From contig CAJINV010000001.1 of assembly GCA_905178155.1 (NCBI GenBank), positions 8,401,599 to 8,465,598 on the forward strand: DNA of 64,000 nucleotides, in the 5' to 3' direction. Source of the DNA: Amoebophrya sp. A120 (taxonomy: Eukaryota > Protista > Dinoflagellata). Of the stretch, positions 2,649 to 63,400 are shown in pieces. How positions within the stretch are numbered: the stretch's first letter is position 1; each line of letters begins with the position of its first letter. The position numbers and the translations under genes are program-made. The notes below the pieces were generated by a model, which had not been told where the DNA came from, made no database searches, and saw only the letters and a list, made by a program, of their open reading frames with translations.

Positions 2649-5600
2649 CTAGAATTCCATGGGCGCATCTAAGCCAGTTCCGTGAAGTAGTTGCTCTTCC
2701 CGCGCGAACTGCAGGTAGTTCTCCTGATCCAAGTATTTCGAGATGTTCACGTCCTCGGCTAGGCCCTTTCTTCTGCGCGTCTTCAGCATGAATTCCCGTG
2801 CCAGGTGCGGTATGGGTGCGGGCTCCAGCGGGCGCAGGAGAATGGACCGGTCCAGAGGATCGCCGGGTACCTGGGACCAGTGGTCGAACCAGGTGACCAC
2901 CATGGCTTGCCCGTTGCAGTGCGACCGCAAATCGGTTTCGAACCCGAACGACTCGATGACCGGCAGGTAGGCCTCCACGATGTACAAGGGGGAGCCTGGT
3001 TTCGGGAAATCTCGGGCGACGTGCCCCCTCCTCCGCGACAGAACGGTGTACACGCCCTGCACTGAGTCGGCCGGACAAGTGACTTCCGCAAAAAACACCG
3101 GCTCCATCATGCGTGGCGCAGCCATCAGAAAGGCGGCGTAGCTGCACCGTCTGGCGCACGGAATTAACTGACCGCCGCCGCGCATCTGCGGGTTCTCGTG
3201 CAGTCTCGCGTCCAGAAGCTTCCACTTCACACCCCGGATCGCCTCGTCGCATAGTGGACCTGATATTACGTTTTTTATGAAGATCGCGCCCGGAGGGCGA
3301 TATTGGTAACCAAATGCGTGCGCGAAAATCTAACCAGCGCGAAAGCCAAACCAGCCGCGCCACGAAAGCGCGGCCCTGCGGGCCGCGCTTTCGCCGCGCG
3401 GCTGCCACCACCATTTCTTTTTAATATAGAATCCCACTTCTTCGCCATTTATCGCGGGCCATCGGGGGCATCCGGATTCGCATTCAAAGCTTATCGCAGG
3501 AGCCTGCGGGCCGCCGCGGGCTCCACCACTTCCCCGCGGCCCTAAAGGGCCGCGGACAACTACTGTCGCCCGCGGCGGCCCGCAGGCTCCTGCGATAAGC
3601 ATTGNNNNNNNNNNNNNNNNNNNNNNNNNNNNNNNNNNNNNNNNNNNNNNNNNNNNNNNNNNNNNNNNNNNNNNNNNNNNNNNNNNNNNNNNNNNNNNNN
3701 NNNNNNNNNNNNNNNNNNNNNNNNNNNNNNNNNNNNNNNNNNNNNNNNNNNNNNNNNNNNNNNNNNNNNNNNNNNNNNNNNNNNNNNNNNNNNNNNNNNN
3801 NNNNNNNNNNNNNNNNNNNNNNNNNNNNNNNNNNNNNNNNNNNNNNNNNNNNNNNNNNNNNNNNNNNNNNNNNNNNNNNNNNNNNNNNNNNNNNNNNNNN
3901 NNNNNNNNNNNNNNNNNNNNNNNNNNNNNNNNNNNNNNNNNNNNNNNNNNNNNNNNNNNNNNNNNNNNNNNNNNNNNNNNNNNNNNNNNNNNNNNNNNNN
4001 NNNNNNNNNNNNNNNNNNNNNNNNNNNNNNNNNNNNNNNNNNNNNNNNNNNNNNNNNNNNNNNNNNNNNNNNNNNNNNNNNNNNNNNNNNNNNNNNNNNN
4101 NNNNNNNNNNNNNNNNNNNNNNNNNNNNNNNNNNNNNNNNNNNNNNNNNNNNNNNNNNNNNNNNNNNNNNNNNNNNNNNNNNNNNNNNNNNNNNNNNNNN
4201 NNNNNNNNNNNNNNNNNNNNNNNNNNNNNNNNNNNNNNNNNNNNNNNNNNNNNNNNNNNNNNNNNNNNNNNNNNNNNNNNNNNNNNNNNNNNNNNNNNNN
4301 NNNNNNNNNNNNNNNNNNNNNNNNNNNNNNNNNNNNNNNNNNNNNNNNNNNNNNNNNNNNNNNNNNNNNNNNNNNNNNNNNNNNNNNNNNNNNNNNNNNN
4401 NNNNNNNNNNNNNNNNNNNNNNNNNNNNNNNNNNNNNNNNNNNNNNNNGACCTTCACGCCTCCCGGCGGTTGCCCTATATGGTAACGGCAACTGCCTTCG
4501 CGCTGCGTTTGCTAAGCAATATCGCAAGCGCGCAGAGCGCGCGCGCCGGCTTCGTGGGCCGGCGCGTTTGGTTACCAGATCACCAGAAGTTTTGGAAATG
4601 CAGGAGCTATTCACGCATGCAATTTCCACGTTGCACATGGTCGCGTGCTTCTAAGCACATAGAGCACACACGGCCCTCTAGTACTGTCGCATTGCTTCTA
4701 GCAACGGATAAGTGCATCTGCATCTTGACCTACTTCGTGCTCTTACCCGGCTTCGGCTATTAGTATATACAGCTGAAACTGATTACTTTACCTTCTCGAC
4801 TTGCCCACTGGAACCCCTGCACGATGCTGTCCTTGCAGGTTTGCAGCAGCTGCTTATTCACATCCAGCGTATCGTTCAAGAGCATGTTGCAGCCGCGATC
4901 CGTCGGGCCAAAGCCCCAGATGCCCATGGCCGCGAGCAAATCCCACTGGTGCTCGTTCCGGAAGTAGTCCCGCATTTCCTTGCTGCCGAGCTCCCACGTG
5001 GGCAGGATGCGCCCTCGCTCGATATCGTCGTGCTATTGTGAGGAAAAATGCCCCCTCCCCATATCGAAAGCGAAATTTGTGCTGCTGTATTTGAGTACAC
5101 AAATCGCATTTGTCTTGCTGGAGAGGACTGCAGACCCATATCAAGCCGGAGTAGAGAGGCTTTGACTTAGGCACTTAGCATGAAAAGCGTCCGTGATGTT
5201 GGCTCAACAGCATGACAAACCGCCTCCATAATGGGACGGAAGCTGCTGCCCTTGTCTTCTTGCAACACAAACGTGATTTGTGACCTCAAATCAGCAACAC
5301 AAATTTTCGAAAACCTACTTCCCCAATATGGGGAGGGGGGATTTTTCCTTGCGATACGTGCACGGGTTTCTCCAGCGGGTCGCAGGTCATGAAGAGCTTG
5401 TATCCTGAGTAAAAACGTACCCACACCAGAGTCAAGATGGGGAATCGGCTAGACAAATCCACAAGCTTTGGCTGTTTTGCATGACAAATTTGGATTCGTA
5501 GCGTAGTGCTGTTTGAGCTAGCTCAGCAGCATCACAGATCTAGCATACCATGCTGATTGGAGCATGACAAATTGCAAAACATGACTAGAAAATGCTTCTC

Positions 5601-22875: not shown

Positions 22876-23151
22876 TTTCTCCTCCTAATAGTTTTCTGTC
22901 AAGTTGTCATCCTAAATCTGCAACTTGTGCTGGTGGAAGTACTTGTTCTACGAGTATAACTCCTATTGCTGAGCAGGGGCAGTTAAAATTTTACAACAGG
23001 GAGGAAAATCGCCCACGCCAAAAATTTTTTTGCAGTTTTCAAACTTTCAAAAGCTTCTGGGAGTTCGCCCAATGTCCATCGCCCAGCCGCCCATTGTCCG
23101 CCGTCCAATGTCCGTCGCACAATGCCCATCGCACAACTCCCATCGCCCAAA

Positions 23152-23258
23152 CGGGAAACGGCCACCGGGAAACGGCCACCGGGAAACGGCCACCGGGAAA
23201 CGGCCACCGGGAAACGGCCACCGGGAAACGGCCACCGGGAAACGGCCACCGGGAAACG
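23152..23258 (+). repeat. 14-bp minisatellite, about 7 copies
   Basis: Unit GGCCACCGGGAAAC. Confidence 0.95.
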
Positions 23259-23264
23259 GGAAAC

Positions 23265-23525
23265 GACAAGCCAAAAAATTTTGCATGCAAGCCAAAAAAA
23301 TTGGAAAGACGGAATATTTCGCGACTCGAAATAAATATTTTGCAAGCCAAGAAATTTTGCAAGCCAAAAAATTTTGCAAGCCAAAAAATTTGGCAAGTCG
23401 AAATATTTTGCAAGCCAAAAAATTAATTTTGCAAGCCGAAATATTTTGCAACCCAAAAAATTAATTTTGCAAGTCGAAAAATTTTGCGAGTCGAAACATT
23501 TTGCGGGCCGCAAGGTTTTGCAGCT
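23265..23525 (+). repeat. Degenerate AT-rich ~18-21-bp tandem repeat
   Basis: Recurring ATTTTGCAAGCC(A/G)AAA. Confidence 0.85.
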
Positions 23526-23602
23526 CTCGAAAAATATTCTGACCAGGAAATATTTCGCAACAACCTTCCAGAGCAACCGACTCCCCCGCTTTTGCAGCTT
23601 TG

Positions 23603-24205
23603 AAAGCGGGAAGCACGGGCAAAGCGGGAAGCACGGGCAAAGCGGGAAGCACGGGGGAAGCGGGAGGCACGGGGAAAGCGGGACGCACGGGGAAAGCGGG
23701 ACGCACGGGGAAAACGGAAAGCACGGGGAAAGCGGGAAGCACGGGGAAGGCGGGAAGCACGGGGAAAGCGGGAAGCATGGGGAAACAAAACGGGAAGCAC
23801 GGGGAAAACGGGAAGCACGGAGAAAGCGCGAAGCACGGAGAAAGCGCGAAGCACGGGGAAGGCGGGAAGCGCGGGGAAAGCGGGAAGCATGGGGAAAGCG
23901 GGAAGCACGGGGAAAGCAGGAAGCATGGGGAAAGCGGAAAGCACGGGGAAAGCGGGAAGCATGGGGAAGGCGGGAAGCATGGGGAAAGTGGGAAGCACGG
24001 GGAAGGCGGGAAGCACGGGGAAGGCGGGAAACACGGGGAAGGCGGGAAGCACGGGTAAGGCGGGAAGCACGGGGAAAGCGGGAAGCACAGAGAAAGCACG
24101 GAGAAGGCGGGTAGCACGGGGAGGGCGGAAGGCACGGGGATAGCGGGAAGCACGGGAAAGGCGGGAAGCACGGGGAAAGCGGGAAGCCCGGGAAAAGCGG
24201 GACAC
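23603..24205 (+). repeat. 18-bp purine-rich minisatellite, about 33 copies
   Basis: Unit GGGGAAAGCGGGAAGCAC with point variants. Confidence 0.95.
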
Positions 24206-25864
24206 GCGGGCGGGTGGAGGGCACACAGAAGACGGGGGGCACGGGTTCGCTGGGAACGCCGCCGGCGGCCAAGCACCAGGCGAGCAGCTGCCCACCACCC
24301 TCCCCCGGCGCCCTCCCTCTGTTCGCGAAGGGAAAACCGCGCCCCAGCACCAGGCTTGCAGGCGAGCAACTGCCCACCACCCTCCCCCGGCGCCCTCCCC
24401 CTGCTCATGAGGAGGCCGGCAGAGGGCGCCACCGTCCGCCGCCTCTGCCAGTCTTGGAGGGTGCGCGCGAGGGAAACAGGCGGGGGCGGAGCAGATTTCG
24501 CGCGAGCTAACGCGGGGGGCGCCGTTGTTGTCCGGGGGTGCTGGGGGAGGGTGGTGGGCCCCTGCGCCTGGGGGGCAATGAATGCCCCGCCCCGGAGCCC
24601 GTCTTCCATCCACGCGCGCGGCAGGGGCCCCAGCGAGCCCCTTTTCTGCAAGGCTGCGCGCGGGAGAAGGGCGGGGAGGGGCGCCAAGGCGCGCAGGGGC
24701 GGGGCACACAGACAGGCGGCACGAGCGGGCCACACCACAAACGCGCGGGCGGGGCGTCACGCGCCAGCGCCTCGCATGGCGCGGATTGTTAGTTCCCTTG
24801 CCTCCTTCCCCCGTCCACTGGCGCCCGCCCGCTGCCGCGCTTTGCGTTGTTGCTTAGGCCTAAGGCTTGCCGCCACGCAAGCGCGCGCCCAGTGCGGGCG
24901 GGGTCCTCGCGCTCGCACAACGACGGGAACCACGGGCGCCCCATGGCGCTCCGCCTTCGTTCTTTCAGCAAGAAGCGGCGCAGATGCCTGGCCCCGCCCT
25001 GCATCAAAAAATTTCTCCCTTGCCCGACATCTGGCGTTTTTCTTTCCCCCCTGTCCACTCGTTCACCCTCCCACTACGCGACATAAGCTGCAGCCTTGTA
25101 GTATGTTGTGGTCCGCAGGGTTACTGCGCCTAAAATCTCTGAGTACGACTAAATTTTTTAGAAGGTACAACTTGAATTATTTTTATTTATGAAGAAGCTT
25201 CGCTAAAGGGCGAAGCGAGCTTCTTCTTGTTCGAAGCAGCGGGTACCAGCTTCGAAGTCTCGTCTCCTGAGAGGATGATGAATACCGACTAACTTTGAAA
25301 AAAAGGCAGCATCACGGTGACGTCGCGAAATGAGAATCCTCGACGGATCATTACGAAAAAATAACACGACGATGGTAACTGCACGACGGCAACTTCTTCA
25401 CGATGCGTCTGGATATTAAAAGCGAAGCAAGTACGAATCTACAGATGGATACCGAAACACGGCGCACGACTGGGTCCGACTGTCAAAAGTAAGTGTAGGA
25501 GGTACGAAGCAACAGGATTCGAAAATTTTGTGACGGCAGACCGAAATGGAGTACACGATCTGTCAAACGGTATCTTGTACGAGGAAAACGCATTATATCA
25601 GAAAACCGAGGGTGATGTCTCACGAGCTGCGCTGGCAGAAGGCGCGCCATGATAGCACGACCACGATAAAAACACAGACGAAATCAATACCCCACCGCAA
25701 GAGAGGCTGCCACGGAGACACTAAGGAATCTTCGACAAAATCTAAAAACTCTTAAAGTATAAAGAACTGCAAGACCGCTCCCGTTCAAGCGAGACTCGAA
25801 ACGAAACAAATGCTTTTCGACTAGCTCAGCAAAGAAGTCACACCAAGTTCTCCAGAGGAGAGCC

Positions 25865-35189: not shown

Positions 35190-37983
35190 TCAAGATGACC
35201 TGGCATTTGTTCTTCTTCCTGCGCATTTCGAAATGACTTTTTCATACTGTCGCACAGTTTCCTCTGCGGCCTCCTGCCAGCTGAAGAACAAACTTCCGCG
35301 AGCGCTGAGCCGCTCGCGCACATTCCGCACGGAAACGCGGTTGTCCGTCCCCAGGCGATTTAGGATCCGCACCAGGTCCGGCTCATCCCGGAACATCACG
35401 TCGCATCCGCTCGGCCCCAGCACCTGTTCGTAAAATTCCGCAAAGACCGGCGACTGCAAGGGAAGAAGAGGGAGCAAGTCGCACCCGAGGGCCTCGATGA
35501 CCGTGATTCCGAACGTTTCGCTTTCGGAGCACGTGAGAAAAAAATCACTCTCCCGGTAAAAAAGCTCCGGCAAAAGGTCGTTCGGGATGGCACCGCAAAA
35601 GGTCACATTGATGTCGCTTATCGACGCACTTGTTGTACTACTAGCGCCCCGTTTCGGACTTGCCGGGTTCGCTCCCTTCAATGGCGACGAGGATTCGCGC
35701 CCGCTCGACGCTGCCTTTGTGTTTTTCGCCGGAGATGCCGCAAGAATCTTGCCTGCGCCAGCGGACGCGGCTTTCGCTTTCGGCGACGACGTTGAAACAG
35801 GTACAACCCCGTTCGTCAGCTTCTTCCACTCGGCAAGCCCGTCCGGCCTTTCGTCCTCGCCGTGTACGAACTTGTGTATTCGTGCACTGGCAGCTTCCAG
35901 TGTTTTTTGCACCAGTGAGCTTTCCTGCTTCTCTGCCCCAGGCGACGACTTGTAGCAGGCTACAGCCAACTCTTCCAACTCCTTTCGCTTCGGCCCGTCA
36001 CCGCAAATAACCAAGTGAAAGCGGTCGCGAAAACGGCTGACCACCCGAATCGCGGTGTCCACATGCTTCTCCGGAGCCAGGCGGTTTACCATCAGCAGAA
36101 TCTTCCGCTGATTCGGGATCTGGAGAATCTTCCGCAGCTTCACTCCCGATTGCTTCGACGATGCTGCGCGCGAGGGCGACGATTTCGATGGGCTTTTTGG
36201 AATCGCATTCGGGTTCGTCCCACTCGCTTTTATTCCAGCATTCACAGTAGAACTCGATGCTGACGAGGAATTTTTTCCCAAGCCGCCGCCCCAGGGAATA
36301 CCAGCAGGAAAAGCGGGTTTTGGAGATTTACTGCCTGAACTGTCCTGCTTTGTTGACTTCGTTCCAGCTTTCGGCGGGGATCCATTTGCTCGGCTGTTCC
36401 CCCGCAAAACCAGGCTGCTCGTTGTTCCCCGGGATGGAGATGAAGCCGTGGTCGTTCTCGAGACTTGCGCAGGCGACGAAGAACCGCCGCGGCCCCGTTT
36501 TTCCGTGGGGGAAGACGAACTCGCGGTGGTTGTCTTACTCGTACTCGGACTTCTAGTGCCATCCGAAAACCTCGAGGGCACTGCAGTCGGAATCACCATG
36601 TAATTCCTCTGCGAATACGGACCCTGGCTGGAAGACATGCAGCGAAACATCTTCTTCTGGATGCAGTTGCCGGCTAGAGAACGGCCGCAAGAGGCGGCCA
36701 GACTGCTCAAGAAAGAAAAACACCCAAAAGATGATGTAGTAGGAGCTGCACTGCTTGTGATGTCCGATTCAGCTTCTCTTCTCTCGCTGCTCTCTGCGTC
36801 GCCGAACAGTTCCGGCGGCCTTGGGTCATTCGGTTGCAGTTTTGTTGTCGTATAGCTGGAAAAACAACGCTTGTCTAGGAAGCTGAACTATGAACTGCAA
36901 AAGTATCGTACTCGAATAAATGCATTACAAATTTTCTCAGCATGAGAAAGAAAATTTGTAAATGCTGATTTGCCTTGACAAAGATATTTGTAATGCAAGA
37001 CCTGCATTTATACGAGTACGATACTTTTGCACAGCATATGAACTCCTTCTGCATGGCGGCGAGCGATGGCGCTACGTTGGCGTCGCCGCAGAGGTATGGA
37101 TTGCAAAAGTGTCTGGGTCTGGAAGAATGCAACTTGTGATGCGCATTTCAGAACACAGAAAAATCTCTCATGCATAGGTAGCAAAAGCCGCCCACTTTCT
37201 GTCACCAAAGTGGGGGATTTGTCATGCGGATTCGGCATTGCGGAAGCTTCTCGAAACCTGTGATGCTAGAGCTTCCATGCCAGACCTTGTGTGTCATGCA
37301 AAAACAGCATGAATCTTCCAGACCCAGACATTTTTACATTTGATAAGAGAGCTGCCGGAACGCGGCCGGAGAGCGAGTAGGAATAGTCTGCGAAGGCGGA
37401 AAAGCAGCCGCTTGGCATGTAGGAGTTTACGTAATACACCATGTCTACGTGGTGACTCACATAGGTCGGCACACCGAGGAAGCGCGCACGAGTTAGGACC
37501 TATTTGTTGATGTTGCTTTCTGAATGTAGACCTCACAACTGCCTGCGCATAGTCATGCACTTGGTCGTTCTCGTTGCATATTCAGAAATAAAACATCATC
37601 CTCGAGACTCGAAAAATTGTCAGAAACTGCTATAATACCGCCAATGCCACCGCGGAGGGTAGGAAGATGTGGACGATGTCGGGTTCGAACGTGCGCATGG
37701 CTTGAAACAGATTCCAGCCCGGAAAGAGGCAAATCTGGTTTCCCTGGTTCCAGTAGTTGGTGATACACAGCCCCATCTTTCGGTAGATGCCGTCTGGGTT
37801 CCCTATTTGCGCCTCGTGTCTCAACTCCATATAACCCTCGGCCTCCAGCTCCTCTGCGCTTTTACAGGTGTAGACTTGCAATTCATGCCCGAGCTTTGCC
37901 ATCTCCAGAACCATGTTGCGCACATGAAGCGCGATACCGTGCACCTCCGTCGGTGAGTAGTCAGACACGATGAGAACGCGCAT
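35190..37983 (-). CDS. Glycosyltransferase family 4 (GT-B; glycolipid synthase/SQD2-like)
   Basis: MRVLIVSDYSPTEVHGIA, PDIVHI, VNRLAPEKHVD, ICGDGPKRKELE and SESETFGITVIEALGC (EX7E motif). Confidence 0.9.
36889..37038. mobile_element. Introner (family D TIR, 150 bp) in GT4 gene
   Basis: TATGAACTGCAAAAGTATCGTACTCGAATAAATGCA...TGCATTTATACGAGTACGATACTTTTGCACAGCATA. Perfect TSD TGAAC. Removal gives KEFSFLDK. Confidence 0.9.
37095..37345. mobile_element. Introner (family A) in GT4 gene
   Basis: TATGGATTGCAAAAGTGTCTGGGTCTGGAAGA...TCTTCCAGACCCAGACATTTTTACATTTGATA. TSD AGAGG/AGAGA. Removal gives PAALCGDAN. Confidence 0.92.
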
Positions 37984-43189: not shown

Positions 43190-46100
43190 CTAGTCATCTT
43201 CCGATTCACTGCTGCTTGCCACGAGCTTCTCCCCCTCGGGCAGACCGGATGCAAGGATCGCGTCAAGCTCGTCCTCCTCTTGCTCTAGCTCGCCTATGCC
43301 GCTGCCAACGTCGTTTATCTGACATATCTCCACGTCGTAGTATACCTGGTTGATGAGGGATTTTTTGCTTGGGATAGTACCCGTGTATCTTATACCCGGT
43401 TGAGGGATTTTTTGGTTTGGTATGAATTCCGCGCCCGGTCGGGCGATACGGTAATCAATCGTTGCGCTGTTCACTTTGCGAAGAAAAAACCGCGACGCGC
43501 GCATTCCGGCGGCCGCGCCCGCGCGAAAACGGGAGGCGCAAACTATTCGGGCGCCAGAGAGGAACGAGCCCAAGGCGCTGCAAAGAGTGGAACGGATCAA
43601 GGGCGCCCCTTTGAGGGGCGGGTCGGGCTGCGCGCGGGTGATCGCGCGAGAATCCAAAAATTTTGGCGCGCCATACCGTCGCGCCTAATGTTACCCCGCA
43701 CGGTATGGCGGGCGCGTGATTTTTGCTCATTTTCGTGTGGGCTTTTTTTGGTTCATTTCTTGCATTTTTGCGGAGGGCGCTTTTGCACCTCAAACGCGAT
43801 GGCATTCGGCTTGATCAGGCGGAGGCCTCCGTCCCGAAAATGGCAAAACGTTACACCTCTAAACACGACTATACGCTGACTAAGCTTTCAGCGTGCCGCC
43901 GTGTTTGGCGGCCTGACAAATTTCGGATTGAGCGCAAGGCCCATTACAAATGGGCGATTTTTTTTCATTTTTTCATTTTTTTCTTGCGAAAGACGACGCT
44001 ACTGCGGACCCACGGAGGGTCCAATTTCGCTACTTTTTCGCAAGCGTACCGGGGGGATTCGCGACACAAAAAAACTCTCATTTTCCGGATACCAATGCGC
44101 CTATGGACGCAAAAATCACCATTTTTACACCTTCCCCCGGTGGGAGGCTGCGTTTTTGGCGCACCTTTTGGCCGCCCACGCGGCCGACCCCGGTTCCAGC
44201 TTAGCAGGCCCTTCCCCCGAAGCTACTGCCCCACTTTGGGGGGCGCCCCTTTGTTCCATCTAGATCCCCCGTAAGGTAATCCGCCGTCGCTTCCTTGCTT
44301 CGCAAATGGGAAGCGGCTTCGCCGGGCCCGGGGGGGCGGGGGGGCTTCCGCCCCCCCGGGCCCGGCTCACCCGAACGCAACGATTGATTACCGATAATAC
44401 CTGGTTGAGGGATACCCGTGTTTTATTTGAACACGCAAAATGGAGAACCAGAAGTGGCGGCACAAATGGTGAAGAAACTCGGGGTTGCCGGCAGGCAAAG
44501 ACAAATACGAGTACCCGCGTGTTGGGTGGTATTACTATCCCGGCGCCCCTGGACCCGTAGGCGTAGAAAGGGGACACGGATATTTCTGCTTTCTCGTGCA
44601 GGGACAAGCCTAGCACGCCCTCGTCGAGGCCGCGAACCACCTCGCCGTTCCCAACCACAAACTCGAAGGACTCTTTTCTCTCCCTCGTATCGTCGACCGT
44701 CTTCCAGTTTTTCTTCCCCTTGATTTTCTCCTCCGCGGTGAGGTCGACGTAGCGCAGGGTGTAGTGTATTCGGATGGTGTCCTATCAAGCAAAAAAACAC
44801 CATCACAATCACATCTAGGAGGTTTTGCATCAGAAATTTCTCTCGCATGACAAATTTTTGTTGTATTGCAAAAACACAAAGGGAAATCATCAATAAGTCT
44901 TGACTGTGATGCATTTTTGCGCATGACAAAAAATTTTGTATTGCAAAAATGTGCAAGAGTGATTGTGATGGTGTTTTTTTCTTGAATATGTCCCCCTTTT
45001 CCACGATGCAGTCCGGGTCCTTGTCCCGGCCTCGAACAATCTTGGTGACCACGATGTTGTCCAGCACTTCCTCCTATCAAATGCAGATATGTCTCGGTCT
45101 GGAAGATTTCTAGATTTGTCATGCTAAACAGAAGTGCGACACACTTTGCCTCCCCCTGTGCAAACGGCCGCAGATGGCTGTCACGCAGGGAAGGTGGGTC
45201 AGGCGGACACCGAAGTGCCATCGCCATCATCTCCCGGCCACTATACCAACTCGCCAACTATACCAACTTTTTTGCCTCACTTTCGCCAACAACGCCAACG
45301 ATTCCTACTCGCGACACATATAGAAAGCACAACCAGGACACCAGCAACAAGGATACTGGACCCTGCAGCACGGCTTTCATGTTAATCTATGGATAAATCA
45401 CATACGCCAAAAACATAGAAGAGAGTCAGAGGCGCTGTTTAGCTTCATCCAATGATAGGCGAGAAGCGGGCGTCGATGTGAAGAGCCCAGGCGGAGCTCT
45501 GGCGTGTCCTAGCAGCCGGTCTCTCCGCCGCGCCGGTCGTTCCTCCTACCACTTCGCTGGCTGCCGCCGCTGGGGCAAATACTTGGGGCCGAGGAATTTG
45601 CAGCAACACTTCTGGTCGTTGAGTGCCCCTACACATCTGGTCGTTGCGTGCTACGGGAGTAGGCCACACGTTGGGCCTACTGCTGAAAACTCCTCTAGCC
45701 CTGCCGCATTTGAGGAGACTCCTGCCGTTCCTTTCCACTCTGTGGCTCGCGATCCGTGCGCGCCTTCCGGCTGGCTTAAATGAATAGGCGCGCGGCTGCT
45801 CCAGCCCGCTGCCCCGGAGGTCATGATTTCGGAGTTGGTGTTTGGCGCTTCTATGTAGAAGCTAGCTCCTGCTACGAGGACGAAATTGAAAGTAAACAAG
45901 GACAAAGAAGATGGAGATACAGAAAGAAAAGAGAAGGAAACGGGTTCTAGATTTGTCATGCATATTTCCCATGACCCATGATGTCTGTGATGCATGCCGT
46001 GGCATTACAGATTTTTAGAGCGCTTTGTGATACCTCTACAGCATAAGAAATGCCCTCTCCGCGTGGCACAAACTGGAGTCCCCTTGCTGGTCATGCAATA

Positions 46101-46232
46101 CAAATTCTTTCAGAATCCAGAGACAGCATCACAAGTTTAGAATGTTCCAGACCCAGACACTTTTGCAATTCATACCTCCTCCTCACTGGAGACATCGAAA
46201 TCATCCACGACGAAGTCTTTGTAATTAGCCAT
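43190..46232 (-). CDS. FKBP-type peptidyl-prolyl cis-trans isomerase, 4 exons
   Basis: Spliced: MANYKDF...VEKGDTIRIHYT...FEFVVGNGEVVRGLDEGVLGLSLHEKAEISVSPFYAYGSRGAGIVIPPNTRVYYDVEI. Confidence 0.92.
43421..44393 (-). mobile_element. Helentron/HINE-like or MITE element in FKBP intron 43346-44514
   Basis: Perfect 18-bp IR CGGTAATCAATCGTTGCG (43449-43466 and 44376-44393). External hairpin CGCCCGGTCGGGCG and an internal ~19-bp GC hairpin at 44321-44366. Confidence 0.7.
44783..44988. mobile_element. Introner (family E TIR) in FKBP
   Basis: TATCAAGCAAAAAAACACCATCACAATCAC...GTGATTGTGATGGTGTTTTTTTTCTTGAATA. Perfect TSD TGTCC. Removal gives KGDTIRI. Confidence 0.92.
45075..46174. mobile_element. Introner (family A) in FKBP carrying a nested insertion
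   Basis: Family A TIRs at both ends and perfect TSD CCTCC. Length is 1100 bp, or 263 bp after removing the nested insert plus one 17-bp repeat. Confidence 0.9.
45125..45944. mobile_element. 820-bp insertion flanked by a 17-bp TSD
   Basis: TTCTAGATTTGTCATGC at 45108-45124 and 45945-45961, with a purine-rich right end. Confidence 0.8.
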
Positions 46233-47225: not shown

Positions 47226-48786
47226 TCAGTAACTAAGCGAGAGTCCCCCACCGCCGTCGCCTCCACCGAGGTACACGCCGATGAAGAAACTTATTGTGCC
47301 CGCGACCGCGCCCTGGAACAGCATCCAGCAGCCGCCGCTCCAGGGACTCGACTCCGCGATCTTGTTCTTCCAGTAGCCCAGCAGAAACAAGGTCGCGAGA
47401 CTTGCGACGCAGCTGATGAGGAAGCCGTAGTTTTGTACGGTAGCATTGCCGAACAGGAGCTCGACGAGCAAGTACGTCCCCACCGGGACGAGGCCGAACA
47501 CCACAAAGGCGACAAACATGGCGAGTGCCGATTTCCAGCACCCGTCCTCATCCGCGTCGGGGGGAAGGATGCCGATTTCATGGAGCAGCATGTGCTCCAC
47601 CCAAAATTTCGGGTACTTGGACAGCGTGAAAGCCACTTTCTGGGCGTCCTCAATGTTCAGCCCGTGCTGCATGTAGATCTGAATCATCTCCGCGATCTCG
47701 CCTGAAAGGATTTTAAATGCATTCTTTGTGAAAAAGAAAAGATGTTTGGACGCATCGAACATGTAAGTACCCATCATAGGGCCAAGAAAGCAAAGAAAGG
47801 TTGACGAAATCCACATCCAACTACCACGCTTCGTACACGAACAGTATGTAAAATACATACCTTCGGGAAAGTTCTCCACTTCCCACTTTTCCCGGTTCAA
47901 CTCGCGCAACGCAATTTGCCGCTCTGCTTTGCTGGAAACGTACTCGCCAAACGCCATGGAGAACGCACCGGCAAACACCTGCGCGAGCCCAAGTGCGACT
48001 AAATGGGAGACGGAGAGGTTGACGCCAACGGCGCCGGCCAGAAACGCAAAGCTGGTGCTGATCCCGTCGAGACCGCCGAACACGGCTGGCCTCACGTATT
48101 CGCCCTCTTCACTGTACAAATTCGATATTCATATTGATGTTTAAGAGTTGTATGTCTATGAGTAGTATACATGATAGTTGCACTCAGTTGATGAAACCCG
48201 CAGCGCCCGTTGGGGAAGATGCAGTCGCAAAGACAAGATGGACTTTGGTAATATGCGAAATCAAGAAAAAACGAAAGCTTCTTGCGATCTACAAATTCAC
48301 CGAATACAGTGTTTTCTCGTCGTGCGGCGGCGGCAGCGTTCCGTTCCTTATGTGGTCCGCCAGCTTTTGGTGCACCGCGGTGCTCGTTTCCTTGTCGTTC
48401 GCCTCAAAGGCCAACCTTGCTCCGCGCAGCCGCTCCGTAGTCAGCAGCGCTTCGGCCAGAGGGCCACTGGGAACGCCGGGCTGCAGGGACCGGTGGGGTC
48501 CGCTGCTCGTGCGGTCGATCCGCGCGCTCGGCCTCAGTATGGGGCTCACGTTCGCCGAGGAGTGGCGGCTGCGGCTTTGCGTAGAGGAGGTGGAGGACAC
48601 CGGCTGCGCGCCGCCGGGGAAGAGGTACTTCGTGTTCCCACCGGAGCTTCGAGGCTCCGGAGGCGGGCCGCCGGGCAAGCTAGTGTAACCGCCCGACATG
48701 TGCAGCGCGGGAGGCTTGGTCGCGCTAGCTGGAAGGGCAGTCAACGAAATCCGACCCCGGGAGGGCGAGTTGCGAGAGGAGGTCAT
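47226..48786 (-). CDS. VIT1/CCC1 family vacuolar iron/manganese transporter
   Basis: GEYVRPAVFGGLDG, AGAFSMAFGEYVSSKAE, REKWEVENFPEGEIAEM and MFVAFVVFGLVP. Confidence 0.93.
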
Positions 48787-54363: not shown

Positions 54364-56160
54364 TCATCCCTTTTTTCTTTTTCTCAAAACGAGCATCATA
54401 TACTTCCCCTGTTCTTTCAAAGGAATCTTCTCGAGAAATTTCCACTGCGCCCCTAGTTGCTGGAGTTTCCAGATGGTCAACGTGGACCCGGCCAGGCCAA
54501 GAAACAGCCCGCCCTCCTTGAGGACGGTCCAGCATTGCTCCATGCAGGTTCGAAACCGCTCGTCGCCCCCGCGGCCGCACAAAAGACTGTCTAGCACGCC
54601 CTTATCCACGACCACATCGACGGAGCTTTCCGGAAGTTGGACCCGCGTGCCGAACTTTTCCTCCACTTCCTCCGGACTCGGTGCCGCTTGCTCTCCTCCT
54701 GTCTTCGCCGCCATTGCGCCGGCGGTGACCGCTCGGTGTGCACCAGCTCCTCTTGGCGCGTCGCCAAACAGCGCGTCGACGTTGGCTGGGGAAGCAGAAG
54801 ATGAAACCATGTCTAAGACGTCCATCAAGGCAAATTGGTGCTGCGGAAACGCTTTCTGCATGGCTTTCAGGCACACGGGCGCGATGTCCGTGTTCAAAGT
54901 GCAAACATAGCCCCCCTGCTTGACCATCTGGATGCCGAACAAGCTCAAGCCGCAGCCGATGTGGAGCACCTTCCAGTGGTAATTTTCCCCCAGGTACTTC
55001 CGGATCCCGTTCGCCGCGTGATGATACTTCACGTTGTAGAACTCTTCGGAGCTGCAGCTACACGCCACCGCTTGCTGTTGCAAGACGTGGGGAGCTGTAG
55101 TTTTTTCTCCCCCTCCGCGGGACGGCGATACGGAGGAGGAATTCGCCCGGCTGCCGGTCTTGTTCGGACTTCTACTGCTGGTGGGCGACGTCGGCGCTGT
55201 GGTCACAGCCGTCTTTGGTGTGATTTGCGTCGAAGCTGCAGGATCTCTAGTAGAAGTACTACTAGTTAACAATCCATCTACCATAATTGTCCCTTCGCCG
55301 CCCTTGCTATCGCTCTTTGGCGGGGACGATTGTTGTATATGCGATAATTGTGCTGATGTTGACGATGGTCCACCTCCTGTCTGTTTACTCTTCGTGGTCG
55401 GAAGTTTCAGCGCCGGAGTACTCCTCTCGCGCAAAAGCCACTCGAATCGGTTGTCCCAGTAACTCATCGTAGCGTACTTGCTAGGGTCCGTGTTACTGTT
55501 GTATCGTTTGGTCCCCAGAAGCGACTCCTCAACGGCGATAGGTTTGTTCGATGGCGAGGCTGAAAGGCTACTTCCTTTATTTCCACCGCTCAGACTTGTT
55601 GCATACGTGATGGTGTTGACCATCATTCCTGCAGCAGCGGGCATCGGTGTACTAGTCCCTCCCGTGGTTGTAGAGGATCCTCCGGTAGTTGCTACACCCG
55701 AAGTAGAGCCACCTCCTCCGCCTACACCCACAGACCGGGCGCGCCCCACGGCCCGCGACCGACCGGAAGACGCGCTCAAGGATCGGCCGCGGTTCATACG
55801 CTCGACGTGGTCGTCCAGCGTGCGGCTTTGGATGGTTTTCCGTGCCACGGATGCAAACAACGCGGCACCGCTCGTTTTACTTAGTTGCTCCGTGGCTGTG
55901 GTGGAGCCTGCTCGGAGATTTTGGTCCCGTATCACTTGCTGCACCACGGGCGCGAGCGAGAGCGACCGGCGACGGCCCGCTGCGCCGGACGGGGTGGCGG
56001 GCTTCGACTGAGCTCTCGCAGGGCCGGCATGAAGTGCCATTTTCTTATTTTCTGTCCTTGTCGTTGCCACTGTGACTGTCTCCTTCTCCTCGGGAGCGCT
56101 TTGCTTGAGTTCAGCTTTGGCGTCCTCTGGAGCCTTACTGGTGCCTTGCAGCTGCGTCAT
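54364..56160 (-). CDS. Class I SAM-dependent methyltransferase (EEF1AKMT4/METTL13-like) with low-complexity inserts
   Basis: YATMSYWDNRF, KVLHIGCGLS, NTDIAPVCLKAM and DVVVDKGVLDSLLCG. Confidence 0.88.
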   Translation of the reverse strand: MTQLQGTSKAPEDAKAELKQSAPEEKETVTVATTRTENKKMALHAGPARAQSKPATPSGAAGRRRSLSLAPVVQQVIRDQNLRAGSTTATEQLSKTSGAALFASVARKTIQSRTLDDHVERMNRGRSLSASSGRSRAVGRARSVGVGGGGGSTSGVATTGGSSTTTGGTSTPMPAAAGMMVNTITYATSLSGGNKGSSLSASPSNKPIAVEESLLGTKRYNSNTDPSKYATMSYWDNRFEWLLRERSTPALKLPTTKSKQTGGGPSSTSAQLSHIQQSSPPKSDSKGGEGTIMVDGLLTSSTSTRDPAASTQITPKTAVTTAPTSPTSSRSPNKTGSRANSSSVSPSRGGGEKTTAPHVLQQQAVACSCSSEEFYNVKYHHAANGIRKYLGENYHWKVLHIGCGLSLFGIQMVKQGGYVCTLNTDIAPVCLKAMQKAFPQHQFALMDVLDMVSSSASPANVDALFGDAPRGAGAHRAVTAGAMAAKTGGEQAAPSPEEVEEKFGTRVQLPESSVDVVVDKGVLDSLLCGRGGDERFRTCMEQCWTVLKEGGLFLGLAGSTLTIWKLQQLGAQWKFLEKIPLKEQGKYMMLVLRKRKKG

Positions 56161-57413
56161 GCCTTGTTCTGTAGTGGTGAGTCTTAGGGTACTTACGCGA
56201 GATTATGCAAATTTCCAGGACCACGCACAGTAAGCTAAGAGCCAATGACTTCTCGATAAAAAGCCCCTACTCTTATAATCATGGCAAACCAGGACGGGAA
56301 CTATCAGAACATGACCGGGCGAAAGAATGTCATGAAGAAGGTTATGGGCATCAAGCATGGAATTTTAGCACAAGGCACCTGATTGAAAGTACTTAGCAAG
56401 AGGCTATCTGCACGAAGGCACGTATCCGCAAACTGCATCCGATTGTACTTAGGTGGGTATGGACGAAACGAAGACGGGTGGAAGGAACGAAATGACCCGA
56501 CGCAACATAAAAGCACGAGTTCTTGGGGTTCTGAGCACGACCAGACGTAGCACGAAGCGAAACGCACAGACCGAAATTTTGTGAAATGAGCTGAAGTACC
56601 GCTAATGTAAGATTTTGGAAAGCTGCAGTACAGGACGATTTTGCTAAAGCGCAAGCACCGAAGGAAAGTGATGAAAGTAGTTCTCCGTTGCAACCGAAGA
56701 GCATACCTTCTGAATCCGCGTACGACAGCAGCTGATTAAGTGTAAGACACTGTTTGTAGTTGAACAACGAATAAAACCAAACTGTTTTTTCTCTTTGAGA
56801 AGTTCGCCCTGCTCGTTTGAAGATGACGAGGTACTGACAACATACTTAATTCCTGCCTGGAGTTCTTACTCCATTGTGCTTTTGGAAACTTCAATCTGCC
56901 ATTGATGTCTTAGAAACAAGTAGTGACGTCCGGTACAAGTAAAAGAATGCTTTGTGATGTAGAAAGAAAACTATAACGTAACTAGTATTGTACACTTCAT
57001 TTTTTAGAAAAAAATCAATGCAAACGAATCAGGAAAGACCAGCAGCATGTTTCATCTACTGCCTATCTGTCTGGATTTTTTGTCTCGGATACGACGAATC
57101 GCGGTCGACTTCACCTTCGGAAGCACTAGATTGTCGTCTTGATCTTGCTCCAGTGTCGCAATGAAATTTTTTTCCTTCCCGCTCAACATACCAGCACACA
57201 GTTTTTGTCGCCGATGATTTTCAGCCTGATGCAACTCCATCCCCTTCTGCAAAGCACGAGCCAGACAAAGTGGATCGAATACTTATTAACGCGAATCCGT
57301 GTCCAGCTGCTCCTGCGATGCTTCTACAAAATTATCGTGTAAGATGTTGACATCTCGTGGGGATGTTGAACAACAATACCGCAGTGGGATGTTGAGCTTT
57401 TGAGAAAAAAACT

Positions 57414-60400
57414 TCACATTTCCATAACTGAAATCGCGCCGTCGTCCCCTGAAGATTTCCGCATGTAATTCTGCAACTCCTTCAGAGTCACTCGCGGTGC
57501 AGGTGGGGCTGCCTCTTGCATCGCCGTCTCGCTAAGCCTTATGGTGGCACTGGATCGTAAAAAATCCTTCTCACTCCCGGGATCGGGACTTATTGCTGGC
57601 TCCTGCTCCACGTTGCTACCTAAATCTATGCCTGTTCTGCCCGCTGGTGCCGGCGTCGCCGGGCTTTTGCCCAGAACGCCTGGCATTCTGTCGTCATTTT
57701 CAAACTCCAAATCTCTGCGCCTCGCGGACGTCGGGTTTTTTCCGCTTTGCTGGTCTGCTTTTTCCTGAGTTGTCTCGTACACTTCTTCTTCGTCTTGGCG
57801 AGCGACCGCCGCCTGCTCCACTTTAGTGCTGCTACCCGCGTTTTCTCCTTTCTCTTCAAATGCCGTTCTTTCCGGGGTCGGAACATTAGAAAAACCGACG
57901 TCGGTCGACGGAACGAAGTCATCCGAGGCTGCGCTGGCCGCAGCGGCCGAGGCGAAATTTGTACTGCCATTGTTCAAAGCACCAGAGGACGATGACGAAG
58001 ACTGGTGGGTCGCCAGTGAGAAACTACCCTGGAGGTGGGTGCGACTCTTCGGCTTTGCTGCTAACGTTTCCTTGGTAGCCACGCGTTGCTGCTTCATGCG
58101 AGCTTTGATCATTTCCAATTGCGACGCTGAAGTCGGCGGTGGCTGTGGAGCCTTCGCGGGTCGTGGGCTCGCAAGAGGTTCTTCTTCTCGACTGGGTATG
58201 TCATCATCTCCGGCGGAGGTCGTTGTGCCCGGGACTGTTGGACTCGCGGCCCTTGAACTTGATTTATGCCGCTCTAGTAGGTTGACAGAGTACTGAAGAA
58301 ACTGCAGCGCCCTCGCACTGCTCGGAAGGGCGGCTGGTGGCAGCGGCCTAGCGCTACTGGGCCCGGCACCGGGCGGAAGGAGCCGAGCGCTACTGGGTCC
58401 GCCGGCACCTCCTCCCTGTGGAACTTCTGCCCTGGCGCTGCTTGGGACTACACCAAGCGTCCCCGGTGCGCCGCCCGGGGTACTTCTACTGCCGGGAGGT
58501 GCGTCTGCACCAGCTCCGGGTGGAGGACTTGGATCCTCTGTGGATGCTGGCTCCGTTTGGATCAACGGCTTCGCCTCGCCTTGCTTGGGCTTCACACAGC
58601 CGATATCCTCCAGCATGTCGCGCACCACCTCGAACGGGTGTGTCAACACTTTCTTCAGCGAGTCCGTCAATTTGATCTCGGGCCTCTTTTTCAACAAAAT
58701 CGCCCGGTCGTCGTCCTGTTCTTTCTGTAAGATGACCATTTCATCCTCCATGTCGTGCTTTAGGAGATCTATCTCTTTCTCCATTTCTGCAATCGTTTTT
58801 TTCTGGGAATGAAGACTCCGCTGGTACGCCGCTCGCCGGGCGGCGGTGGTGCGTTTTCTCGATTTCTGCGCCGCCCGATTCGACGTCGCGTCGCGAGTTC
58901 CTACAGCGTCGTCCGAGAACCGCACCGCCGTGGGGGAGCTGCGGGTGCCCGCGTCCATTTCCTCCGAGATCCGCACCGCGCCCGGCGCGCTACCATCCGC
59001 CAGAATTTTTCTCATGGACAGCCAGTCAGCAGCATCGCCGGTAACATCAGCCAGGATGTCGCCCTTCTCGTCCCGAATGGTCACAGACACCTTCTGCGGT
59101 TCATTATCCGGAACCGAGCCACTGGCCCGCTGGTGCAGCTGGGCGGCCTGGAGAAGGCCGTGCAAGAACGGATGCTGGCGGTCGTCCAGTAATGCTTCTC
59201 GGTCATCCGCCCAAGCACGGGTGTACCCCCTGGTAAATCGCCCATCGTCCTCGGTTGCCGTGGAGCCCCCGCCGGTTGCGCGCCAGCGGTCGGTCCCGGT
59301 GCCGGAGCCCTCGGTCGTAGTGCCGGAGCCCATGGCCGCTGTGCCGGATCCCTCGGCCGCGGTGCCGGTGCGTGTCGGATACGAACTTGCACGCGACGCG
59401 CGCGCGGCCTGCAGCGATTTCCGCGAGGTAGGCGCCGCCTTCGGTGCCGGGGCCATTCGCCGCGGGGAACTGATTTCGCCGTCGGACGAGGCCCGCATTT
59501 GGGGCATCTGCAGTGGTCCCCGCCGACCTCGGGCCGAAATAATTTCCGGTGCGTCGGAATTGCGCGGCATTTTCCCTTTCTTGCCCTTGCTCTTCCGCGA
59601 GGCCGGGGACGAAGCCGGTTTTGGCATGGACGGACGGCTGAACGGTAGGCCCGGCCTGCCCGGACGGGCGAAAGCTTTCCCCATGCCTTCCGACTCGCGT
59701 CCTTCCAACTCCACCTGCGCAGACGGGAGCCAGAAGAACGGTTCTTCGACATCGCTACCGCCCGGCGCCAGGAGCGGTCCAGCACCGTCTACTTCCCCGT
59801 CATACACGGTGGTGGTGTGGCGTAGGCGCTCTATCTGGGATTCGGTCCTGCTGCCACTCGTCGTGTACGAATACTTCGTCTCCATGGAGCGCAACGCTAG
59901 CTCTTCATTCTCGTCGTCCGTCAGCGCTTCCCCGGACACATGGCCCGCGTGGGCCATGAGCGCCAGCTTCTGTGCGTCCACCACCTGGGCCTTCCGCGCC
60001 ATGTGGGTCTCCAGCTCGGTGATGCGCGCGTCGGCCACGCGCCCCTGGTGGTAGTACAGGAAGACGCACGTGCAGAGCAGCAGAATGCCCGCGAGACCGC
60101 AGCCCAGGATCACGAACTTCTGCGTCTCCTGTTCCTCGACCGCCTCCTCATCCGTCACGACGAGCGGGGGCCCCGTCGTTGTGGTCGGGATGGGACCGAT
60201 GATAATTGGGTCCTTCTCGCTGCCCGGCAGCCTGAGCGTCACCGTCGAGTACTCGACGCGGTCTTGCGAAGAAGATGTCGTCGTGGTCACTGACGTTACC
60301 GTCGTCACGGCGGCTGTGCTGGTGGAGATGGGCACAACTATGGGATCTATCATTGTCGTTGTCGTTGTTACCGTTGATGTCGATGTTGTACTGCTACTGG

Positions 60401-63400
60401 TTGTCGAAGTTGTTGTGCTAGTCGTCGTCGACGACGTGAATGTAGTCGTCACTGTGCTCGTCGTCGTCGTCGTTGTGGTCGTCGTCGCGCCCGGCGCCAG
60501 CGTCGTCGTCGTCGCGGCCGGGTCTAGCGTTGTCGTAGTGGTCGTCGACGTGGTCGTCGTGCCTGTGGTGGTTGTGCTTGTCGTGGTTGTGACGGTCGTG
60601 GTAACTGTGGTGGTCGTCACTGTCGTCGTTGAGCTGGTCGTGCTCGTCGACGTCGTGATCGTCGTCGTCACCGTGGTAGTGGCGCCTGGCACGTAAATCG
60701 TAGTGGTCGTCGTGGTCGTCAACGTCGAGGTGGTGGTGGTGGTGGTCGTGGTCGTTGGTAGCGCGCCCATCAAGCAACTTTGGGTCTCGGTGTCCAGCAA
60801 GTCGTCCAGCGCCCGCTGAAACTTGTTCGTGATCGGCCGCGACGTTTTCGGACTGTTCCAGTTCGCCGGCGTGAGGGAATTCCGGAGCGCCTGCGCCACC
60901 GCGGGAACCGACGCGGGCTGGAGGCCGAGCACGACCGCGGGGAAGGTCACATTGTAGACGGCGTACGCGGTCGGGTCGGCCGCGCCGGGACACTCCGGGT
61001 CGGCCCGCAGCTGGTACCGGTTGGCCGGCACGAACTCCGGCGAGTACACGTCAAACGCCGGCACCAGCACCGCGTAGTTATCCACCAAGTACGCAAACAA
61101 CGCGCCCAGCAGCACCGGCGCCACCTCCGTCCGCAAGCACGCCGCGTCGCAACCAACCAGAATCAGCTCCTGCCAGAAATCGAACTGGTACCCGACCAAC
61201 ACGATCGTCGTGGTCGACGTGGTCGTCGACGTGGTGGTGGACGTGGTTGTTGTCGTGGTGCTCACCGTGGTCGTGATGGTGGAGGTCGTCGTGGTCGACG
61301 TCGTCACGGTGGTCGTCGATGTCGTGGTGCTCGTCACGGTGAAGGTCGTCGTGGTACTGGTCGTCGTCGTGACCGTCGTGGTACTGGTGGTACTCGACGT
61401 GGACGTCGTCGTGCTCGTTGCCGTCGTGGTGGTCGTGGTCGTCGTCGTTTCCGTGCTCGTCGTCGTGAGCGTTGTGGTGCTAGTGGTCGTCGAGGTGGTG
61501 GTCGTGGTGGTCGTCGCGGTCGTGGACGTTGTCGTGGTGGACGTCGTCGTGGTCGTGCTGGTTTCCGTGAAGGTTGTCGTGGTCGTCGTGGTGCTGGTAC
61601 TGGTCTCCAGGGTCGTCGTGGTCACGGTCATCGTCGTTGTGGACGTCGTGGTCGTGGTACTGGTGGACGTCACCGTGGTGGTCGAGGTGGTGGTCGTGGT
61701 CGTGGTCGACGTGGTGGTGGTAGTCGAGGTCACCGTCGTGCTGGTCGTCGTCGTGGTCGACGTCACGGTCGTCGTTACGGTCACGGTGGTGCTCGTGGTG
61801 GTGGTGGTGGACGTAACCGTGGTGGTGTCGGTCGTCGTGATCGTTGTGGTGGAAGTGGTCGTCGACGTGGTCGTCGTGGTGGACGTTTCGGTGGTGGTGC
61901 TGGTCGTGGAGGTAGTGGCCGTGGTCGTCGACGTGGTGGTCGTGGTGGCCGTCGTCGTGGTGGAAGTCGTCGTGGACGTGGTCGTGGTTGTGTAGGTCAC
62001 CGTCGTGGTCGTCACCGTCGTGGTGGTCGTGGTGGTGGTGGTGGGCAGTGCCACAAACCGCTCCGGGTCGTACGGGACCAGGTTCCCGTCCACCATCCGC
62101 AACCCGGGGCCCGCCGCCCCCGCCGCCCCCTGGCCCTCCTGCGCCGCGTAAAAGTTGCCGTACAGCGCCGCCTCCAGGTACGGCCGCATGCGGATCCGCC
62201 CGCCCTTCAGCGCCAGGTCCTCCTCGAACGCGTACGCGATCGCGTCGTGGATTATCAGCGCGTTCTCGTACGTGTCAACGCCCACGAGCTGAATGCGGAA
62301 GGAGTGGAACTTGGCGAGGGGATATCAAACGCAAAATTCGATCGATGTTTCTGCGATCTACGGATCACTCATGAGGTAATACTTTGTGATGCGCAACAGC
62401 TCGTAGGCGCCTTGGAGACTATTGGCAAAGAAGTGCTGTCACGGAGGACGAGATCAGTTCTTTTACACTTTACATGATGGTTGGGCCCTTCTTTGGAAAA
62501 ATATTTGACCCGAGCTACTTCCGGTGCATGCAGGATGTATAACGTCGTACAAAAATGTAAGTAAGGCATTTCTACTTCGCACAGAAACCACATCAAATTT
62601 TGCATTTCATAACGTTTCCCCGTCTGCTTTAGGACCGGGTGGCACACAGATGCTTTCCGGGCTAAGAGCGAACATACCGTATTCGGTGGCGTCCAGGAAA
62701 CCGTCTTGAGTCGCATCGATGCAGGTAAACAGTTTCTGCGCAAACGCCATGCGTTCGTTACTTAGATCACCGCCGAAATACTCCGCCTTTTGGAACTCAC
62801 TCAGCTCAATTCTTGTGGCCGGGTTTGATATGGGGCCGCTTACAAGTCCGATATCCGAGGAGGGGTTTGAGGTTCCGATATCCGCGTAGGTCGGCAATGT
62901 GGTCGGCAGCTGCGCAAGCAAGTTCGTGAGCGACACCGTGTAGGTTAGGCTGACCACATCCCAGGTGTGCTTGCAGTCACAGAACTATACTCAAGCAAAC
63001 CGCGCGAGTCGGTCCTGTGATAAGAACGTACCTCGTTAAATGCATCTTCGTCCACCTCTGCTTGACAGCGGCAGAGGATTCCGTCCTCGGAGCCTTTGAT
63101 ATTCAGTGGCTGTGCAAAGATTATTTTGTGCGAATATGTCGACTACCGCATGACAAAATTCTTCAACTTCCATGGTACGCCTATAAGGCAAAAACAAGGA
63201 AAACGACCGTGCAAGAAGAAAGTGTGGACCACCACTTCTGGATCGTCTTTCCACAAGTGCAACAATGACCAGGGTAATTATATCTATTTGTCATCACTGA
63301 GACCGCGCAGCGCGCTTCTTCTCCAACTTGCATAACAAACTGTAATCCACTGGTCGCCCGGTCGAGGACGTCGCTGCGGGCGTCGTGCCCACCAGGCCAC

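Follow-up and report, generated by a model that had tools for sequence, protein, structure and literature searches.

The window analysed here, a stretch of 64,000 nucleotides, contains an FKBP gene interrupted by an introner (a mobile intron) of 1.1 kb. An earlier note on this DNA had suggested that the introner is enlarged by a second element, inserted at a conserved introner motif and perhaps using introners as safe harbors. This raises the question of what the insert is, whether it chose its site, and how the gene survives its presence.

A nested element in an FKBP introner

The host introner (45075-46174) belongs to the family designated A. It runs from TAT to ATA with inverted arms of about 34 bp, and is flanked by a 5-bp direct repeat (45070-45074 and 46175-46179). 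It contains two copies of the 17-mer TTCTAGATTTGTCATGC, at 45108-45124 and 45945-45961, which are identical at 17/17 positions, as had been claimed. When the 1100-bp element was resampled 500 times under a first-order Markov model, no resample (0/500) had an exact repeat longer than 13, against the 17 observed. The copies are separated by an insert of 820 bp (45125-45944). When the insert and one copy of the duplication are removed, the remnant is 263 bp long and aligns over its full length with four family-A introners of 262-268 bp, at 87%, 79%, 76%, and 75% identity. The description of a standard family-A element beneath the insert is therefore confirmed, as is the presence of the conserved introner motif within the duplication: it is TTGTCATGC, at 45116-45124.

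Each junction is crossed without a single difference, the left one by a contig of sample X1 (45046-45189) and the right one by a contig of X5 (45694-45982). The X5 evidence is not independent, because X5 may be the sample from which the window came. No second copy of the insert was found in the window. Nor was any empty allele of this locus seen, which was counted against the retroposon interpretation developed below.

The introners of the window have a TAT start, seven looser bases, a run of A and direct repeats of 4-5 bp. These features are shared with the introners described from Amoebophrya A120, which have a TAT start, seven looser bases, an A run and short direct repeats at their borders (PMC7789003), and mostly non-canonical splice sites (PMC7789003, PMC12130899), as here. 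The A120-type features found comprise TAT-started inverted ends, short direct repeats and removal from mRNA. On this resemblance, the host genus is likely Amoebophrya.

Several other features of the window were recorded. A perfect 25-bp inverted repeat starting with TAT (3492-3597) adjoins an assembly gap, a run of 844 N (3605-4448), and tandem repeats with unit lengths of 14, 17, and 18 bp are clustered at 23065-24210, the 18-bp unit being present in 33.6 copies. Minus-strand frames match the VIT1 family (47226-48128, E=1e-55), glycosyltransferase group 1 (35190-36887, E=2e-18) and a methyltransferase domain (54364-56202, E=2.5e-4), while a frame of 1636 amino acids over long tandem repeats (57414-62324, also minus) has no Pfam family.

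Splicing of the FKBP gene

The gene lies on the minus strand. Exon 1 (46175-46232, with its ATG at 46232) is followed by the nested introner, exon 2 (44989-45069), a second introner (44783-44988), and exon 3 (44512-44777). Exon 2 is placed by an X1 contig and the joints, and its borders can slide by 5-6 nt. The second introner has no GT-AG placement and contains two empty copies of the motif. Downstream of the nested introner there is an exon match to Pfam FKBP_C (E=1.9e-16); exon 3, which is defined by Pfam and by a loose contig end at 44512, encodes most of the FKBP domain and is followed by a further intron.

Both introners are removed in X1 contigs. The joint 45069>46175 skips 1105 nucleotides and can be read as GT..AG, and the joint 44777>44989 has a depth of 90. 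The record at the first joint consists of 24+226+24=274 letters, leaving no room for additional ones, and the spliced frame is open across both joints. Depths in X1 are 43 for the spliced nested intron, 22 for an unspliced junction contig and 13 for a contig over 45165-45894, although contigs give neither strand nor expression level. That samples X1 and X2 consist of RNA is a guess, neither being on record as such; for X1 it is supported by the spliced joints and by zero depth over 44300-44441 and 44797-44867, the latter within the neighboring introner. The raw reads of an RNA run, X9, supplied 2 reads only at the locus, too few for strand or splicing. It is concluded that the enlarged 1.1-kb intron is likely still to be spliced out, and that the FKBP frame survives because of this. 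The safe-harbor proposal thus stands in so far as a likely RNA contig lacks the whole nested intron, but unspliced or insert-derived RNA contigs are also present.

The earlier note had called this the only GT-AG-compatible introner, and suggested that this may explain its tolerance of a fourfold expansion. Ten introners were delimited in the window and placed on each strand, the strand of the gene being established for the nested host only. The nested host is indeed the sole one of the ten with an exon-restoring GT-AG placement on the minus strand, but the introner at 37095-37345 has one on the plus strand. The explanation itself fails: in the three other host introners described below, neither strand allows a GT-AG or GC-AG placement, a comparison that tests insertion and not size, as those hosts carry short inserts. 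It is also contradicted by a published A120 family with copies of about 1.15-1.19 kb, in which 24/27 donors are non-canonical (PMC12130899, supplement file 8, row 549). GT-AG ends are not required in host introners.

Anatomy of the insert

The insert is likely to derive from a target-specific non-LTR retroposon as a copy that is non-coding or shortened at its 5' end, read on the minus strand and sense to the host gene. Three parts can be distinguished. The terminal 120 bp on the left (45125-45244) are conserved and common to all copies, and are likely to be the 3' end. The middle part (45245-45766) is a CCAAC-rich variable stretch followed by segments common to few relatives, from which they differ at 9 positions in 112 nt and at 11-14 in about 95 nt. 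The right end (45872-45944) forms on the minus strand a pyrimidine tract, with 85% C+T over 71 nt, closed by an AG at 45873-45872, and is a candidate splice or trans-splice acceptor. No relative was found elsewhere. A contig in X2 departs from the genome right after 45873, in this AG, with 4 letters beyond, while an X1 contig continues past the AG to 45894. The X2 departure would fit putative trans-splicing or a putative cryptic acceptor.

The minus strand of the terminal 120 bp is predicted to form a terminal hairpin and a C(UUCG)G hairpin, and changes between two subfamilies keep pairs as G-U on this strand, which is one-sided and weak evidence. The fold of the 120-nt end was no better than those of shuffled sequences on either strand (z 0.48, 138/200 as good), and alignment folds of the four sequenced copies gave no two-sided compensatory change; both results were counted against a retroposon. 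The conserved 120 nt may be a signal on the RNA for a retroelement protein. Within the middle part lies a hairpin (45658-45681) in which relatives show position 45662 changed from G to A and position 45677 from C to T; if both changes were on the same contigs, the pair would be compensatory.

No Pfam family was detected in four frames of the insert, and no longer homologous protein was found for two frames, the latter results being weak negatives. Translation of the insert therefore revealed no reverse transcriptase or endonuclease in the frames examined, a further point counted against a retroposon. Judged by these frames, the window copy is a non-autonomous element, and as no coding part was found it would need a partner. 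The only Rfam match is weak (E=1.9) and lies outside the insert, and ARAGORN gave none. No SINE head derived from tRNA, 5S, 7SL or snRNA was thus found in the insert, although a head could be absent from a 5'-shortened copy, and there are no LTRs or terminal inverted repeats within it. HDV-like and hammerhead readings were unsupported both by eye and by pattern. Penelope-like elements carry a hammerhead ribozyme in a pseudo-LTR and have a partner that combines GIY-YIG with reverse transcriptase; the insert contains the CTGANGA core on neither strand and has no match in Rfam.

Depth of contigs over the insert

Contigs of samples X5 and X6 were placed on the window at 80% likeness and their depths were summed. 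In X5 the summed depth is 3500-3960 over 45129-45244, compared with 19-29 for single contigs, then falls to 38-186 over 45245-45766 and to 29 over 45767-45965. X6 gives a profile of the same shape, with no cover at the right end. Division suggests 116-175 copies of the left end (about 100-200), a rough figure since the depth of contigs does not measure copy number directly. A single contig covers the purine-rich right end, and the right 180 bp of the insert have no relative. X5 also contains no near-identical source copy of the 820-bp form. These last two absences were counted against a retroposon.

The first bin at the left end (45100-45128) has a depth of 1412 in X5, compared with 465 expected if no copy had the motif and 1511 if all began at 45116. 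By this rough arithmetic, with which X6 agrees, about 0.9 of the copies adjoin the motif. Among those listed, the loose contig ends at the left end fall at 45112, 45115, and 45116 (12 contigs in X5, 13 in X6, 2 in X7, and 2 in X2) and none at 45125; the copies behind them thus include the motif and then diverge. Copies with different flanks may exist beyond those listed, and this was counted against a retroposon. Beyond the loose ends, several contigs resemble by eye the arms of another introner family. One X6 contig runs to 45242, continues for 21 letters and returns to 45112, as expected for tandem copies around the duplication. A 1164-nt contig of X2 has only 45213-45245 in common with the insert.

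Further copies in metagenome contigs

Metagenomes were scanned with the insert end alone, using a pattern without target bases, which identified four loci (L001-L004). Two of these contigs, L001 and L002, are rich in the window's introner families and hold three further copies, of which L002:729 did not match the pattern. L003 and L004 have no motif, no similarity beyond the pattern and no introners, and are read as chance. Pattern scans of viral contigs gave 0 matches, as did those of prokaryote genomes. The insert is therefore a repeat, and not single-copy filler.

All three further copies are located in family-B introners, the window copy being in family A. The copy at L002:8001 is 59-60 bp long, with a duplication of 17-18 bp and 9 extra bases at the far junction. 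That at L002:729 is 27 bp, with a duplication of 17 bp and a 4-nt microhomology at the far junction. The copy at L001:1295 is about 130 bp and has no full duplication, a feature counted against a retroposon; its join shows a 6-base near match, TGTTAT for TGTCAT. Only four copies are available as sequence, which was likewise counted against that interpretation. Every one begins with TAAAC directly after TTGTCATGC (4/4), and from this common end the copies run for 27, 59-60, about 130, and 820 bp. The duplication of 17-18 bp is present in 3/4, and microhomology or extra bases occur at the shortened junction of all three short copies. The eight duplicated bases outside the motif vary by locus and agree with the local host sequence, which implies that the duplication is derived from the target. 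On comparison of their two host families, different lengths and different duplications, the insertions appear independent. All four appear to be sense to the host gene, based on RNA joints for the window copy and on frames judged by eye for the others.

Two other elements were observed in L001. An 815-bp introner (L001:6184-6998) contains a different insert of about 600 bp that ends in (ATG)n and has a probable 8-bp duplication, judged by eye, which is not at the motif junction; it is likely to represent a second type of retroposon inside introners. The 484-bp element at L001:2056-2539 has inverted ends and direct repeats with no TAT start in the scan, and may be another long or nested element.

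The motif and the choice of site

TTGTCATGC or a close variant is present in 9/10 of the window introners (1124-53258), which belong to several families. They carry it 1-3 times, often about 75-85 bp apart. Its frequency is 52 sites in 84 kb, or 3e-4 for each position on each strand. Together, the window, L001, and L002 contain 55 sites, of which 4 are occupied and 3 are duplicated copies. Within 50 nt of an introner end, 4/13 sites are occupied, compared with 0/17 internal ones (Fisher p=0.026); this test covers delimited introners only, with the 3 duplicates left out, and the loose ends at 45116 may include internal sites. The result hints at a preference for sites near the introner end. The machinery that mobilizes or splices introners may bind at the motif.

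Independent insertion at one repeated site is thus found in 4/4 sequenced copies and in about 90% of copies by depth, in agreement with the proposal that a second element targets introners. We conclude that the site-specific insertion is repeated and real.

Probable mechanism of insertion

Target-primed reverse transcription (TPRT) leaves a common end at a conserved site, variable far ends and a duplication derived from the target. Such a footprint is present here, as the earlier note had supposed from the long duplication. We therefore consider it probable that the insert derives from a sequence-specific non-LTR retrotransposon, of which it is the non-coding end, shortened on the 5' side and copied by TPRT beside TTGTCATGC in two introner families. 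A retroelement protein would bind the conserved 120-nt 3' end of the RNA at one of the motifs that introners of many families carry, and would nick the target just before GCATGACAA on the element strand. Reverse transcription from this nick would fix the junction there, and early stops would end the copies at variable places. A second nick about 17 nt away would produce the duplication, leaving a far junction with the microhomology or extra bases that are observed. At the FKBP locus the enlarged intron is spliced out and the frame kept, and the copies, being sense to their host genes, would be transcribed within host pre-mRNA. The 3' junction is determined by the first nick, which makes the fixed left end the likely 3' end and the minus strand the likely reading strand of the element; the purine-rich right end would then be the 5' end, with the duplication copy at 45945-45961 likely on its 5' side, and the pyrimidine tract would be on the element strand. 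The suggestion that the purine-rich end is a retrotransposition tail is accordingly not upheld, because the end shared at high copy lies on the left (45125) and the right end is likely the variable 5' end.

The duplication of 17-18 bp in 3/4 copies lies in the range of about 7-20 bp for non-LTR products. A poly(A) or simple-repeat 3' tail is usual for such products but not universal; none is present at the fixed end, which is ...GTTTA in 4/4 copies, and this was counted against the retroposon interpretation. Microhomology and extra bases have been reported at the 5' junctions of LINEs (PMC2666801).

An unlikely alternative is the opposite polarity: the RNA would be plus-strand with its 5' end fixed, and copying would start by internal priming at variable sites. 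This is the pattern of tailless retropseudogenes, truncated RNAs that show target duplications but lack an A tail (PMC5322556), and microhomology at the variable junction in two of the three short copies fits internal priming. Priming by pairing would not account for the 9 extra bases that L002:8001 has at its variable junction, however, and the motif abuts the fixed end, exactly where the minus-strand reading puts the first nick. Neither Rfam nor the tRNA search gave a match in the insert, the minus strand is also the one on which the acceptor-like tract reads, and the one-sided changes that keep G-U pairs point weakly the same way. We find it harder still to accept that the introner transposase or another nuclease cuts the motif, and that repair then fills the break with cDNA or DNA from an abundant repeat lacking any targeting machinery of its own. 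Introner families have the motif in common and it could be the binding site of their transposase, the occupied sites lie near introner ends (4/13 against 0/17 internal, p=0.026), and microhomologies are present. Repair patches are not expected to show such regular ends and duplications, and here the end is fixed to the base with one orientation to the motif in 4/4 copies, with the 17-bp duplication in 3/4.

It is very improbable that a DNA element integrated with TTGTCATGC as its core, whether through site-specific recombination or through one-ended rolling-circle transposition. Rolling-circle elements also show a fixed end with a variable far end. The duplication includes eight locus-specific bases outside the motif, however, and is thus not a carried core, and the insert has no terminal inverted repeats. 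Introners of unknown mechanism have been reported in Amoebophrya, but cryptons and helitrons are described without target duplications (both PMC12130899). The locus-specific 17-bp duplications largely refute this rival. Introners being mobile and very abundant, one old insertion could have hitch-hiked with its host introner, or the structure could be an assembly artefact; we regard either as scarcely credible. Two unrelated host families, with differing lengths and duplications, refute hitch-hiking as a general explanation, although some copies may have multiplied so, and an artefact is contradicted by the contigs that bridge both junctions with 0 differences.

If the insert is a TPRT product, a more speculative extension, which we think doubtful, is that it is a promoterless hyperparasite. 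It would read the shared introner motif (perhaps the site bound by the introners' own protein), always land in sense orientation in a spliced intron and use its own tract and AG (45944-45872), through splicing or spliced-leader trans-splicing, to obtain its RNA from host pre-mRNA.

Comparison with known systems

Two described systems are similar. In crocodilians, 313/347 near-full copies of SINEU-3 are found in Mariner-N4_AMi, a non-autonomous DNA transposon; SINEU-3/Tx1-Mar has a 16-bp duplication and tandem copies around the duplication, its 5'-truncated copies retain the preference, and transcription driven by the flanks has been proposed (PMC4494074). The insert resembles it in probably being a non-coding retroposon in an abundant mobile element, with a duplication of about 17 bp (compared with 16 bp) and a tandem-like contig. 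It differs in that its target is spliced out of protein-coding genes, that its site is a short motif of several unrelated introner families rather than a position in one family, that neither an snRNA head nor an autonomous partner was found, and that its host is a protist. In Xenopus, the non-LTR element Tx1L has a specific site in the DNA transposon Tx1D, an arrangement described as causing the host little damage, and it encodes its own endonuclease, which was tested in vitro (PMC1950540). The insert likewise has a specific site inside another mobile element, but no protein was found for it. By analogy, it would work as Tx1L/Tx1D and SINEU-3/Tx1-Mar do, with no clade implied.

Non-LTR retrotransposons have been reported in Amoebophrya genomes (PMC7789003, PMC12130899), and four A120 families are given that label, and the label only, in supplement file 8 of PMC12130899. 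As far as their accessible text goes, PMC7789003 and PMC12130899 deal with elements that create introns, whereas the present insert lands inside introners. No report of an introner-targeting element was found in the literature searched, which included the accessible text of these two papers and of PMC11282704 and mostly did not extend to subscription papers.

The targeting of DNA transposons by retroposons is therefore already published, and what is new is the spliced-out target and the Amoebophrya-type host. Known sites of target-specific retrotransposons are rRNA, tRNA, snRNA and spliced-leader genes, microsatellites, telomeres and other transposons (PMC8869645). The target here is a young mobile intron in a protein-coding gene, and safety for the host thus comes from splicing. 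The finding points to a sequence-specific retrotransposon protein, yet to be found, with a short and common target: one 9-base motif opens many introner families at once. Nested insertion accounts for some of the long tail in the distribution of introner sizes. How Amoebophrya introners move or are spliced is left unresolved in the accessible text of PMC7789003, and TTGTCATGC is now marked as a motif recognized by something, which provides a lead on introner movement or splicing.
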